This document shows, one piece after another, positions 584-4,231 of a DNA stretch of 64,000 nucleotides. Every line of letters starts with the position of its first letter. The stretch's first letter is position 1. Origin of the DNA: Calditrichia bacterium (lineage in GTDB: Bacteria; Calditrichota; Calditrichia; RBG-13-44-9; J075); the NCBI GenBank assembly GCA_050633245.1, contig JBOEGD010000030.1, forward strand, positions 96,001 through 160,000. Reading direction: 5' to 3'. The position numbers and the translations under genes were made by a program. Below the pieces are notes generated by a model. That model was given only the letters and a program-made list of their open reading frames with translations. It did not search any database and was not told where the DNA came from.

Positions 584-618
584 TCGACTGCGATTTCGAT
601 GTTTAAAATCGCAGTCGA
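584..618. terminator. Stem-loop downstream of the Trx-TPR gene
   Basis: TCGACTGCGATTT...AAATCGCAGTCGA inverted repeat. It lacks a properly placed U tract. Confidence 0.45.
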
Positions 619-624
619 AAAAAA

Positions 625-1695
625 TTAAGCCTGCGGCTTCATATATGTTGCAAGATTGTCTTTATAAGACTTCTCTTCCGGATTCAACTCGGACGCTTTC
701 TTCATTGCCTTAATGGCTGCCTCTGCATTGCCATTCGCAAAATGAAGTTGACCCAGCGTATCCCAAATCGCATCAGCTTCGGGTTCTAACTTCAGCGCTG
801 CTTCGGCAACTTCAATCGCACGGTCGTACTGCTTATCCATTTTACCTTTAAAGACAAACCAGGCATAGGCATTCATCATATTTGCGTTTTCCGGCATACG
901 CTTAATCGCGGCTTCATAGGCGGCAACGGCACCCTCGGAATCGTCGTTCCTTGCACTTTGGCGCGCGAGGCTACTATAGCTGCGCGACAGGAATGGACTA
1001 TCGTCAGGCAGAGAAGCGATCAGATTCTTTAGCTTACTCATATCACCCTTAGCGGCAGCATAACCTGCCAGACGGTATTTCGCCTCGTCCGCCAAGCCTT
1101 TCTCATTATTTGGATCTAAACTGAGAAGAGCTTCATAATACTTTGCGGCACTTTCATCATCTTTTCGCATGGAGTATTTATCGGCAATTTGCTTTGCCAA
1201 CTCTGCACTCTTATTGCTTTCAAACTGACTGGTTAAATCAGAAAGTGTGCCCGTGCCTTTGAGGTAATCTTTTACCTTCTGAACATACTCATCTTTATCG
1301 CCACCAAACCCAACCAGGCGATCAATTTCATTGCCATCTTTATCCAAAAAGATAACGGTTGGATATCCGGCAACGCTAAACTTCTTCATGAGATCCGGGC
1401 CTTCACCCTTCTCTCCATCAATTTTCATGCTAACAAAATTGGTGTTAAAAAACTCTCCTGCTTCACTGTCCTGAAAGACCGACCGGTCTAAACGTTTACA
1501 GGGACCTCACCATACGGCAAAGAAATCGAGCATCATCATTTTCTGCTTGTCGGCAGCCATTTTGGTTGTCTCATCAAATGAAGTCTTTACAAACTGGACT
1601 CCATTTGAAGCAACTTCAGTAGACGGACTTTCCGTCTCGTAGCCACCACAGGCAAGCAAAAACAACAACGCTGTTAGTAAAAGCGGCTGTTTCAT
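625..1695 (-). CDS. Thioredoxin-fold + TPR lipoprotein, probable selenoprotein (Sec at codon 63), 356 aa
   Basis: ORFs 1507..1695 and 625..1428 are in frame, joined through TGA 1509-1507: LLAC lipobox...MMLDFFAVW-U-GPCKRLDRSVF...YPTVIFLDKDGNEIDRLVGF, then C-terminal TPRs. Confidence 0.88.
1468..1505 (-). promoter_or_regulatory. Putative bacterial SECIS element
   Basis: Immediately 3' of the UGA: lower stem GUCCCUG/CAGGAC, upper stem AGACC/GGUCU, 4-nt loop GGUC starting with G, 22 nt after the UGA. Confidence 0.7.
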
Positions 1696-1820
1696 GCGTT
1701 TCTCCTCTGGTTGTTAATATGACAGGACTTAGTAGAACAAAAATAATACATCAACTTATAAATAACGTCAATATACCACAAAAGATTCATTCGCCTGCCA
1801 GAGTCAAACTCTGGTGCGAC

Positions 1821-2792
1821 TTATTTATTCTTATCGTTCTTCAAAGACTCTCGCAATGCCTTGGCATCCTGCTTTACCTTATCACTGGGACGCTTAAACA
1901 GTTTCTTTCCTTCGGCATAAACACGTGCTGGTGGCGTGCGTAAGTCCCAAACAATGCGAAACCAGGACAGCACCCGCAAACCATAATGTGCCGGATCAAA
2001 CTCCCACCAGTAAAAGCCCTGACGCTCCGAGGACGGAAAACGGTGATGGTTATTATGCCATCCTTCACCCAGGGTAATAATGGAAATCAGCAAGCTGTTG
2101 CGACTATCATCATCTGTCTTAAAACGCTTGCGCCCGTAAACATGAGTAAGCGAATTTACCGTAAAGGTGCCGTGATACAACAGCGTTGTACTGATGAAAA
2201 ATCCCCAAACCACCATTTGAAAACCCGATGTGCCGAGCTCCGGAAAAAATGAGTTCAGCGTATAACCAATTCCGTACATAATTCCAGCCAGCGTAACCGG
2301 TGGAATCCAGTAAAAACGATCCAGGAAATTCAACTCGGGAAATTTAATTAAATCTTTTACCAGCTTCGTATGCGTACATTTGTATTTATCACACAAGATC
2401 CAACCAACATGCGACCAAACAAATCCTTTTCTTGGGGAATGTATATCCTCCTCGGTGTCGGAGTGCTTGTGATGATGGCGGTGATGCGCTGCCCACCAAA
2501 GCGGGCCTTTTTGTGCAGCAGACGTCCCGAGATAAGCCATCATAAATTGAAAAACGCGGGTGGTTTTATACGTACGGTGTGAAAAATAGCGATGGTAGCC
2601 GGCAACTATTCCGAACATGCGAATACTATACGTCAACAATAATGCGACAATTGCTACCCAGCTAACGCCTGCCCATATGACTAATACGCAGGCAATGTGA
2701 ACTAAAAAAAACGGAATACCTTGAAACCAATTTGTGACTTCATCTGATGGTCGTGACATGAAGTAATCCTCAATGTTAAAACAGTTACTCAC
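1821..2792 (-). CDS. Acyl-CoA (delta-9 type) fatty acid desaturase
   Basis: His boxes HRYFSH, HRHHH and GEGWHNNHH, plus TM segments. Start codon uncertain. Confidence 0.92.
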   Translation of the reverse strand: MSNCFNIEDYFMSRPSDEVTNWFQGIPFFLVHIACVLVIWAGVSWVAIVALLLTYSIRMFGIVAGYHRYFSHRTYKTTRVFQFMMAYLGTSAAQKGPLWWAAHHRHHHKHSDTEEDIHSPRKGFVWSHVGWILCDKYKCTHTKLVKDLIKFPELNFLDRFYWIPPVTLAGIMYGIGYTLNSFFPELGTSGFQMVVWGFFISTTLLYHGTFTVNSLTHVYGRKRFKTDDDSRNSLLISIITLGEGWHNNHHRFPSSERQGFYWWEFDPAHYGLRVLSWFRIVWDLRTPPARVYAEGKKLFKRPSDKVKQDAKALRESLKNDKNK

Positions 2793-2984: not shown

Positions 2985-3265
2985 AGTATAAAGTTCAATG
3001 GACAATCGACAATCGACAATATAAAGTGCAATGATTCGAAAATTAAGTTGTCAAACGAATGTGCGGCAGTAGTATCGCACAGGAGTGCTTACCAGTTGCG
3101 TGGAGCTACTGCAAAAAAGATTGCCGGGGTGGAATAATAACGTTAGATTAAAGTGATACTTCTGCCAGAACCAAATGGAACATGCGGCGTTATATTGAAT
3201 AGCAGGTGTCAGGAAGCAAAACATATCAACAAGCAGAAGAACAACTAAGAGTTGAAGCATCATTC

Positions 3266-4231
3266 ATGAATAATATATCTTCGATGAAAAACCGCGAACG
3301 AAACACATACGCAACATCAGTGGTGCTATCCATTCTGCTGCACTTGTTGCTGCTGTTTCTAATCGGTTTATTTCAACTGCTTTCTCCTTCGGCTCAGGCA
3401 CAGCCGGAAACACAACCGATCGTGCTGGAGTTCGAACAACCGGCACAGCCCCCCCCCCCACAACCAATTCAACAACAGCAGCCGCTACCGGAGAAGCTCT
3501 ATGAAGTTGTGGAAAACCCAAATGCCGATAAGCAGAAGGCATTGGATGGTTCATTGCTTGCCGCACAGTCATCGCGTTCTGCTGCACCAGACATCAGCAA
3601 ACCGGAAAAATCGCAGGCTCCTAAAACAAAGCCTGAACTAAGCAATGAGGTAACGCTACCATCTGAAGCGTCTTCAAGTGCTGAAAAAGCCCCGGAAGAA
3701 GCATTCGATATGGATGGAACAATAGAAGCATTTCTGCGCAAAAATCAGCCCCGCTTTTCCAAAAAACTCCTGACGCAAAACAAAAAAAATGACAGCGGAT
3801 CCAGCCAAAACTCAGCTCAATCCGAAACCGGATATGTTCAAACAGAGTTTGATGCTGAGTTTGTCGGTGAAATGCGATTCAACACCTACGAATGGGATTG
3901 GGCACCATGGTGGTTGAAGTTTCGCGAAAAACTCATTCGCTTTTGGGTTTTAAACGTTCCCAGTATGTATAACCGTCTTGGTCTTATAGATGGTCGCACA
4001 TATGTTACTATTCAAATTGATCAAGATGGAAAATTAATCCAGTACAAGATCAATGAACATGTTGGGCACGAATCACTCTACCACAGTAGCGTCGGAACAA
4101 TAGAAGGCGTATTTCCTTTTAAAGCACTGCCGCCTGATTTTCCCGAAGAATTTCTCGAACTTAATTTTGTTATGATATATCCTAACCTAAGAGAACTGAG
4201 CGAAAAGTATCCTGATCGATTTCGAAAATAG
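3266..4231 (+). CDS. TonB/TolA-like energy transducer
   Basis: N-terminal TM helix with SxxxH motif (SILLH), Pro/Gln-rich linker and TonB-C-like C-terminus, upstream of exbBD-like genes. Start may be 3284. Confidence 0.75.
   Translation: MNNISSMKNRERNTYATSVVLSILLHLLLLFLIGLFQLLSPSAQAQPETQPIVLEFEQPAQPPPPQPIQQQQPLPEKLYEVVENPNADKQKALDGSLLAAQSSRSAAPDISKPEKSQAPKTKPELSNEVTLPSEASSSAEKAPEEAFDMDGTIEAFLRKNQPRFSKKLLTQNKKNDSGSSQNSAQSETGYVQTEFDAEFVGEMRFNTYEWDWAPWWLKFREKLIRFWVLNVPSMYNRLGLIDGRTYVTIQIDQDGKLIQYKINEHVGHESLYHSSVGTIEGVFPFKALPPDFPEEFLELNFVMIYPNLRELSEKYPDRFRK

Follow-up and report, generated by a model that had tools for sequence, protein, structure and literature searches.

A predicted exported selenoprotein that joins a UxxC thioredoxin domain to a tetratricopeptide repeat domain in Calditrichota and other bacterial lineages

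Introduction

A stretch of 64,000 nucleotides from a Calditrichia bacterium (assembly GCA_050633245.1, contig JBOEGD010000030.1, positions 96,001 to 160,000), here called the window, carries on its minus strand two short open reading frames (ORFs) that are separated by a TGA codon. The question raised by this locus is whether the TGA ends a gene, marks a broken one, or is decoded as selenocysteine (Sec, U) within a longer protein. All coordinates below are positions of the window, and the gene concerned lies on the minus strand. Our results indicate that 1695..625 is a single intact, monocistronic selenoprotein gene of 356 residues, an identification to which we assign a probability of about 0.85. 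The gene joins a thioredoxin domain to a tetratricopeptide repeat (TPR) domain; it is very probably a real Sec-decoded gene, for which selenium incorporation is predicted. UxxC selenoproteins of the thioredoxin fold with cysteine homologs are a classic class that has long been known, and the interest of this locus lies mainly in its domain architecture and in its recurrence among distant bacteria.

Gene structure and sequence reliability

On the minus strand the ORF list gives 1695..1507 (62 codons) and 1428..625 (267 codons), which are in the same frame and open in between. Reading 1695..625 with TGA as U yields 356 residues, and the sole departure from translation table 11 is U63 at 1509-1507, in the local sequence DFFAVW-U-G-P-C-KRLDRSVF. 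The first-pass annotation, which was made from the sequence alone, had joined the two ORFs into one frame broken only by the TGA and had placed this codon at the attacking-cysteine position of a thioredoxin motif. Both readings hold, with a column that is invariantly Cys or Sec at residue 63 and an equally invariant C66 in a 26-row protein alignment. The features of the gene and its flanks are as follows.

625..1695, minus strand: complete coding sequence of 356 codons, Sec63 among them, followed by the TAA stop at 627-625.
1507..1509, minus strand: UGA codon, predicted selenocysteine 63, first position of the UxxC redox motif (translation and the invariant Cys/Sec column).
1498..1500, minus strand: TGT codon, Cys66, resolving cysteine of UxxC (invariant column, and a Cys codon in 80 of 80 related loci).
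1702..1706, minus strand: Shine-Dalgarno sequence AGGAG, 6 nt 5' of the ATG at 1695 (direct reading of the sequence).
1743..1771, minus strand: promoter-like TTGACG-17-TATTAT 5' of the gene, with 10 of 12 positions matching in a consensus scan.
616..639, minus strand: terminator-like hairpin AAGCC-GCA-GGCTT (639-627) over the stop codon, followed by a T run (consensus scan and sequence).

The position of AGGAG supports a translation start at 1695 and not at the internal ATG at 1428. Together with the promoter-like site and the terminator-like hairpin, it suggests that the unit is monocistronic with its start at 1695. The promoter-like site is a consensus match only, as six such sites were seen in the region and 4.4 are expected.

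The TGA is also found in independent sequence data. Logan contigs from two runs of two studies span the codon (X1, 1442-1702; X2, 1420-1570 and 1505-1668). Their differences from the window fall at 1453, 1536, 1618, and 1627, and they are identical to it at 1507-1509 and over the hairpin at 1476-1489. The concern that the TGA might be a misassembled TGC or TGT was thus answered by contigs of two studies that retain it. Over 600-1800 the strain differences listed number 27, 19 synonymous and 8 non-synonymous, and the three that lie 5' of the TGA comprise two synonymous changes and one M54V. As the change is mostly synonymous on both sides of the TGA, the two parts of the frame both appear to be under coding constraint. 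In addition, two metagenome contigs with a product 77-78% identical to that of the window encode W-U-G-P-C and keep the identical 14-nt hairpin, and their 4 and 5 differences within 60 nt of the TGA are all third-position changes outside the hairpin.

Selenocysteine machinery and genetic code

The source genome is a draft of 6.35 Mb in 59 contigs and is 97% complete. It contains a tRNA-Sec (71.2 bits, above the Rfam cut-off, called tRNA-SeC (tca) by ARAGORN), selA (561 bits) adjacent to and directly 5' of selB (359.8 bits), and selD (358.9 bits, TIGR00476 above its cut-off), which has one in-frame TGA of its own. All four components score above their curated cut-offs, and the search for selA, selB, selD, and tRNA-Sec that had been suggested as a check therefore returned a complete set. 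TGA is an ordinary stop elsewhere in this genome and terminates 506 of 2,724 stop-to-stop frames of at least 300 codons, and on this ground a reassigned TGA (code 4 or 25) was rejected.

The selA gene was found in all 8 genomes with a Sec form of the thioredoxin-TPR gene, in all 4 genomes with a Cys form, and in 71 of the 86 genomes of the phylum. This necessary component of Sec decoding is thus present in each of the 8 Sec-form genomes, and its distribution does not discriminate between Sec and Cys forms. As a separate observation, selA is present in all 15 other genomes of the family to which the source genome belongs and in 0 of 10 genomes of family f5, where its absence looks like a lineage-wide loss of the Sec trait.

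Alternation of cysteine and selenocysteine among relatives

Matches at E ≤ 1e-30 were obtained in 11 of the 86 phylum genomes, six with one TGA inside the match and five with none, and weaker matches in genomes G039 and G040 carry one TGA each. In these matches the TGA is always the first position of the redox motif. The motifs found are listed below.

Sec forms: WUGPC in the window; GUGGC in G037, G033, G081, G078, and G080; WUGSC in G039; WUPSC in G040.
Cys forms: WCGPC in G014; WCVPC in G004, G008, and G012.

When one genome of each prokaryotic species was scanned with a pattern, 468 loci were confirmed, and the best 80 of these were compared. Among them, the first motif position is TGA in 15 loci and Cys (TGC or TGT) in 65, and the second motif position is a Cys codon in all 80. 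According to the record titles, the Sec forms come from Calditrichota, Planctomycetota, Fidelibacterota, and unclassified bins. In a quickly built maximum-likelihood tree with 86 rows, of which 19 are Sec and 67 Cys, the Sec state changes at least five times, and three of these changes are forced by branches with a Shimodaira-Hasegawa-like approximate likelihood ratio (SH-aLRT) support of at least 95. The rows left out of this tree were L021, L023, and L040 (duplicates of the records L055, L057, and L058), the truncated L042, and L027 and L029, which the extraction pattern missed. The homologs alternate between Cys and TGA at exactly codon 63, as would be anticipated of a Sec codon and as the first-pass annotation had proposed to check. 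These switches, at least five across Calditrichota, Planctomycetota, and Fidelibacterota-like lineages, provide natural matched pairs of Sec and Cys forms and hence a basis for asking what selenium gives extracytoplasmic redox enzymes.

The ortholog L042 (G080:C13) deserves separate mention. It contains both the TGA and the hairpin, its frame is open for only about 167 residues, and it represents either a broken copy or an assembly fault.

Public protein sets reflect the same alternation. Sec forms appear there as N-terminally truncated products of 267-291 residues, which start at an internal MKIDGEKGEG or just past the motif. One of these entries bears the name 'tetratricopeptide (TPR) repeat protein', and the Cys forms have full-length entries of 355-363 residues. 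The mis-annotation that had been predicted, with public relatives cut off just after the TGA, is therefore real. It is a recurrent error in public data, in which Sec forms are kept as 'TPR repeat proteins' without their catalytic domain.

The SECIS-like hairpin

In bacteria, decoding of UGA as Sec is directed by a selenocysteine insertion sequence (SECIS), and a bSECISearch-type criterion places its apical loop 16-37 nt from the UGA with a G in the first loop positions. The candidate element of the window is given below.

1476..1489, minus strand: SECIS-like hairpin AGACC-GGUC-GGUCU with its loop at 1484-1481 (sequence, and a loop shared with the other Sec genes of the genome).

This hairpin starts 18 nt past the UGA codon, its first loop base is separated from the TGA by 22 nt, and the GGUC loop starts 25 nt from the U of UGA. 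It fits the criterion of a stem-loop just 3' of the UGA with an early loop G, and the hairpin with a G-initiated 4-nt loop that had been reported 22 nt 3' of the TGA is confirmed as AGACC/GGUC/GGUCU at 1489-1476. The hairpin motifs counted here were defined after viewing the data, on bSECISearch rules, so that the percentages are descriptive. Of the 221,549 TGAs of the genome, 961 (0.43%) are followed by a suitably placed GGU-loop hairpin, which also arises in 0.26% of synonymous resamples of the thioredoxin-TPR gene. The narrower GGUC-loop hairpin, which has a loop of 4-5 nt that begins with GGUC, four or more non-wobble pairs, and 14-36 nt from the U to the loop start, follows 168 of these TGA triplets (0.076%). 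Four other in-frame TGAs of the genome carry the same GGUC-type loop, as follows.

selD: loop GGUC, 20 nt from the U of UGA; TIGR00476 above cut-off.
fdhA-like gene: loop GGUCU, 21 nt from the U of UGA; a Molybdopterin domain spans the TGA.
AhpD-like gene: loop GGUC, 20 nt from the U of UGA; TIGR01926 at 101.9 bits (cut-off 81.8).
AhpC/TSA-like gene ('SUGFC'): loop GGUCC, 21 nt from the U of UGA; an AhpC-TSA domain spans the TGA.

The two kinds of homolog differ in a looser motif, whose loop has 4-6 nt and a GU at its positions 1-2 or 2-3. Within the phylum, 7 of 8 Sec forms have this motif and none of the 4 Cys forms does; among the best 80 loci, it occurs in 9 of 15 Sec forms versus 1 of 65 Cys forms. 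Thus, Sec forms keep a hairpin at the SECIS position and Cys forms are mostly without it, which agrees with the expectation of the first-pass annotation. Aligned over 8 Calditrichota-type Sec forms, the four core pairs of the stem give 32 cells, of which 31 are Watson-Crick; the 32 cells of 8 Cys forms comprise 13 Watson-Crick, 12 wobble, and 7 unpaired ones. This Watson-Crick excess results from the choice of GAC and GUC codons for a conserved Asp and Val, and the support for the hairpin within the Calditrichota clade appears to rest on conservation and codon choice. Between G039 and G040, a compensatory change from U-A to C-G was observed (UUUGCU/AGCAGA versus UUCGCU/AGCGAA), with both sides at synonymous sites.

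Several results weigh against a functional SECIS at this place. The energy of the 76-nt fold is unexceptional (z = -1.46, with 17 of 200 shuffles equally good), and 23.8% of synonymous-codon resamples drawn with the genome codon usage fold as well over +13..+48. Because the folding energy was non-significant, it was dropped as a discriminator and the positional loop motif was used instead. In the four other Sec genes of the genome the loop lies 4-5 nt closer to the UGA. Among the best 80 loci, 6 of the 15 Sec forms miss the loose motif and have small hairpins with loops such as AGGUUA, AGGUCA, and CGAU. The stem of the Calditrichota clade is without covariation, with 0 pairs changed on both sides and 346 of 500 shuffles equal to it, and a search with Rfam at E up to 10 returned no SECIS family and only two chance-level matches.

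A further hairpin was observed in the Cys-form orthologs L023 and L024 (G008 and G012). It is an A/U-rich stem of 7 bp, AAAACUG...CGGUUUU, located about 15-35 nt after the Cys codon and thus shifted 5' of the SECIS position, and it may be due to chance or be a remnant of a former SECIS.

Protein architecture

The predicted protein consists of three parts.

1648..1695, minus strand: signal peptide with lipobox LLAC, Cys16 being the predicted lipid anchor (pattern match).
1279..1590, minus strand: thioredoxin-fold domain, residues 36-139, of the DsbD-gamma / Thioredoxin_7 type (Pfam, PDB, and structure).
628..1248, minus strand: TPR domain, residues ~150-356, an all-helical repeat solenoid (Pfam, model, and structure).

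The N-terminus, MKQPLLLTALLFLLAC, fits the lipobox pattern of PROSITE PS51257, with the previously noted LLAC lipobox ending at Cys16. The pattern is also found in 11 of 87 other family loci, mostly of the Calditrichota type, and in the 26-row alignment most Calditrichota-type orthologs have a Cys at the lipobox place. Nearly all other N-termini of the family, judged by eye, are hydrophobic and resemble signal peptides without the Cys. Export thus appears to be family-wide and lipid anchoring a feature of the clade, as far as the N-terminal sequences indicate.

Residues 36-139 match PF13899 Thioredoxin_7 (48.9 bits, cut-off 27), PF00085 Thioredoxin (46.3 bits, cut-off 23.5), and PF13098 Thioredoxin_2 (46.5 bits, cut-off 27). 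Over residues ~160-350, TPR_2 (58.6 bits), TPR_14, TPR_19, and others exceed their Pfam cut-offs, consistent with the C-terminal TPRs that the first-pass annotation had noted. TPR_CcmH_CycH (PF23914) is borderline below its cut-off (41.7 versus 42 bits), and generic TPR families score higher. None of the 22 NCBIfam families listed reached its cut-off; the best selenoprotein model was TsoB (NF045694, 68.2 versus 805 bits), and among redox families TsoB and DsbD matched best, through their gamma-domain parts.

AlphaFold was given the 26-row alignment, and the resulting model has a mean predicted local distance difference test (pLDDT) score of 92.3 and a predicted template modeling (pTM) score of 0.82. 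Its confidence is low only at residues 1-3 and 17-28, the latter following the lipid-anchor Cys as expected of a tether. In the model, U63 lies between a strand (53-59) and a helix (64-74), as in thioredoxins, and 13 helices with pLDDT above 90 cover residues 151-355. The cis-Pro position, P112 in G-Y-P-T, is invariant in the alignment. Taken together, the profiles, the motif at the start of helix 1, and the cis-Pro loop place the predicted protein, as judged from alignment and model, among the thioredoxin-fold CxxC/UxxC oxidoreductases. The structural neighbors of residues 28-148 are 2kuc (Z 16.5, root mean square deviation (rmsd) 2.5, 42% identity), Chlamydia DsbH (2ju5, Z 15.9), the C-terminal domain of a DsbD-type protein of Bacteroides fragilis (3f9u, Z 15.4), and E. 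coli DsbD-gamma (1vrs_D, Z 15.1). Residues 148-356 resemble generic TPR solenoids at Z 15-18.

Proposed function

We propose that SelB and tRNA-Sec, directed by the GGUC-loop hairpin, would decode the UGA at 1509-1507 as Sec. The product would be exported by its N-terminal signal peptide and lipid-anchored at Cys16, and the anchor would be followed by a flexible tether, the DsbD-gamma/DsbH-like thioredoxin domain with its W-U-G-P-C motif, and a TPR solenoid of about 200 residues. The selenolate of U63 might then attack a disulfide or an oxidized Cys of an envelope protein gripped by the TPR domain, and Cys66 would resolve the mixed selenenylsulfide. The oxidized U63-C66 pair could be reduced by the three-domain DsbD of the genome, which is encoded by a separate gene of 696 residues with DsbD_N, DsbD_TM, and Thioredoxin_7 domains. 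We rate such a periplasmic reductase with a client-binding TPR arm, which would be an extracytoplasmic version of the thioredoxin-plus-TPR 'chaperedoxin' layout, at roughly even odds. The reductase direction is suggested by the WCGPC-type motif and by the kinship to DsbD-gamma and DsbH, which belong to reducing pathways. We infer that the TPR solenoid may bind clients, as in CnoX or CcmI, and that DsbD may recharge the U63-C66 pair. The Sec-bearing, extracytoplasmic thioredoxin-like protein envisaged in the first-pass annotation is borne out by the Sec machinery, the Cys/TGA alternation, and the lipoprotein signal, and it is the role of the TPR domain as a client-binding scaffold and the redox direction that we infer. 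Two points speak against this mechanism. The neighboring genes are not conserved across about 60 loci, none of them being a redox or cytochrome-maturation gene, and the closest solved thioredoxin domain, 2kuc, is itself uncharacterized.

A bolder form of this proposal, in which we place little confidence, would make the protein an extracytoplasmic 'chaperedoxin' and the founding example of an unlisted multi-phylum selenoprotein family, in which a TPR holdase captures oxidatively damaged or unfolded envelope proteins and a DsbD-recharged Sec reduces them. If this were true, Sec would have been recruited repeatedly (at least five switches), its selenolate resisting irreversible over-oxidation in the oxidizing periplasm, and the protein would be the first periplasmic counterpart of CnoX.

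Alternative explanations

The explanation that survives best among the alternatives accepts a real selenoprotein but makes it a thiol oxidase or isomerase, DsbA- or DsbC-like, that would insert or rearrange disulfides in exported proteins held by the TPR domain. The redox motif of DsbA is C-P-H-C, and the motif found here is the thioredoxin-type W-[C/U]-G-P-C. The model is also without the helical insertion of the DsbA type. The protein is extracytoplasmic, as an oxidase or isomerase of exported proteins would be, and its PDB sequence matches include protein disulfide isomerases (E 1e-13 to 1e-15). The closest solved domain, 2kuc, bears the title 'putative disulphide-isomerase', but the closest characterized structures come from reducing pathways, namely DsbH (Z 15.9) and DsbD-gamma (Z 15.1, rmsd 1.9). 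A 2026 review (PMC13188914) lists UxxC selenoproteins that resemble DsbA and DsbG. We consider an oxidase or isomerase unlikely.

A narrower role would be that of an apocytochrome c reductase and chaperone, in which the TPR domain holds apocytochromes like CcmI/CycH and U63 keeps the cysteines of CXXCH reduced. PF23914 is pre-computed for most homologs, but in the window protein its 41.7 bits remain, if narrowly, below the gathering score of 42 and generic TPR families score higher; the score is borderline, and a likeness to the apocytochrome-binding CcmI/CycH TPRs may still exist. A neighbor of the thioredoxin domain, 3f9u (C-terminal domain, Z 15.4), is titled 'putative exported cytochrome C biogenesis-related protein', a title that reflects a DsbD-type protein and not a cytochrome-specific one. 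As no cytochrome-maturation gene adjoins any of the roughly 60 loci, this role seems improbable.

The gene could also be a pseudogene, that is, a Cys-type thioredoxin-TPR gene killed by a nonsense mutation from TGC or TGT to TGA, with no full-length protein made. Among full-length relatives, those of highest identity (46%) are Cys forms, the TGA is one base change from TGC or TGT, and the stability of the hairpin alone is unremarkable. However, the TGA and the hairpin persist in the relatives of 77-78% identity and in the strain contigs, with mostly synonymous change on both sides. Moreover, the stop sits on the sole residue where Sec is functionally equivalent and recurs at codon 63 in at least five clades, the hairpin is like the other SECIS loops of the genome, and the Sec machinery is present. 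A pseudogene is accordingly very improbable. A sequencing or assembly error hiding a true TGC or TGT, conceivable in a draft of 59 contigs, can be set aside almost entirely, since contigs of two other runs from two studies over 1420-1702 agree with the window at 1507-1509, the TGA is present in two further metagenome contigs, and truncated public gene calls for close relatives imply the same stop.

Gene neighborhood and other selenoprotein candidates

The neighborhood survey covered 26 flanking ORFs from 11 loci and 97 of 149 picked flanking ORFs from about 50 loci. The neighbors found among these flanking ORFs were all clade-local (the Planctomycetota clade, for instance, has an ammonium transporter, and one Ignavibacteria clade a chromate transporter), and no partner was common to all. 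A fatty-acid desaturase gene adjoins the thioredoxin-TPR gene both in the window (1821-2792, same strand, upstream) and in G040 (L029:2257-3255, divergent). It is the only neighbor common to distant loci and may be there by chance. Farther upstream, at 2867-2984, a 7-nt tandem repeat (CAGAACT, 16.9 copies, 96% matches) separates the desaturase gene (start 2792, minus strand) from a divergent ORF at 3206-4231 (plus strand), and may form a promoter region prone to slippage.

Scanning the whole genome for the hairpins of additional Sec genes gave mostly noise, and 11 candidates were taken to Pfam. A Pfam domain spans the TGA in L044, L045, and L047, and L046 was confirmed by NCBIfam only. Candidates L048-L054 were dropped, their domains lying wholly downstream of the TGA or no family being found. 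L047 (G000:C24:180285-181070) is a second candidate for an exported UxxC selenoprotein, with an AhpC/TSA-Redoxin domain and the motif S-U-G-F-C. It also has a signal peptide, a FlgD_ig domain, and a type IX secretion C-terminal sorting domain, and its hairpin has a GGUCC loop that starts 21 nt from the UGA. L046 (G000:C26:110836-111417) is an AhpD-like 'peroxidase-related' selenoprotein candidate with the motif C-P-F-U and a GGUC-loop hairpin, and gave no Pfam match at E ≤ 0.001.

Comparison with known systems

In its catalytic part the window protein resembles the classic UxxC selenoproteins, with which it shares the thioredoxin fold, Sec in place of the attacking Cys, Cys homologs, and a SECIS candidate just 3' of the UGA. 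It differs from them in its lipobox signal peptide and its C-terminal TPR domain of about 200 residues. The 2026 review PMC13188914 covers 119 bacterial selenoprotein families, none of which is described with a TPR in the excerpts of it considered here; a term search over its text returned 0 occurrences of 'TPR', 'tetratricopeptide', 'lipoprotein', 'periplasm', and 'Calditrich'. A full-text search of articles likewise returned no paper on a thioredoxin-TPR selenoprotein, although supplementary selenoproteome tables might list one. The Trx7/PDZ selenoprotein (NF041199) of that review is also a Thioredoxin_7-type selenoprotein fused to a protein-binding domain, but its Sec comes second (CxxU) and its partner domain is PDZ. 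NF041199 is not among the NCBIfam matches of the window protein at E up to 0.01.

The thioredoxin domain itself is related to DsbD-gamma, as indicated by PF13899 at 48.9 bits, by 1vrs_D (26% identity over 110 residues), and by the extracytoplasmic location of both, and to Chlamydia DsbH, which is an extracytoplasmic protein of the Thioredoxin_7 type as well. Unlike these proteins, the window protein is standalone, without the membrane domain of DsbD, and has Sec for Cys and an added TPR domain. The DsbD model NF001419 matches at 59.1 bits against a cut-off of 330, over the gamma part only, and the DsbH model NF043050 at 43.4 against 190. DsbD identity was rejected on the score of NF001419 and the absence of a DsbD_TM or DsbD_N fusion. 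The closest solved relative of the domain, 2kuc from B. thetaiotaomicron (E 6.7e-30), shares the WCGPC and D-x-EKGEG motifs, but it is a Cys form with a solved chain of 130 residues and no TPR domain.

The overall layout of an N-terminal thioredoxin domain followed by a TPR domain is that of CnoX/YbbN of E. coli and Salmonella (3qou and 3qdn). Of the solved chains among the Foldseek matches listed, these two alone align with both domains (316 and 332 columns). CnoX is a cytoplasmic protein. The window protein is only 15-16% identical to these chains, the domains are arranged differently (template modeling score 0.26-0.32, rmsd about 22), and it has an export signal, a DsbD-gamma-type thioredoxin domain, and Sec. 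Membership in CnoX/YbbN was therefore rejected, since the order of domains is shared and the cytoplasmic location, the arrangement, and the sequence kinship are not. The Sec decoding, the chemistry, and the Cys/Sec alternation of the thioredoxin-TPR gene are all standard, and the understanding of Sec decoding and of thioredoxin chemistry is unchanged by it. The exported thioredoxin_7-TPR architecture, recurring as a selenoprotein in several phyla, seems to be previously undescribed, and it is a probable addition to the bacterial selenoprotein catalog.

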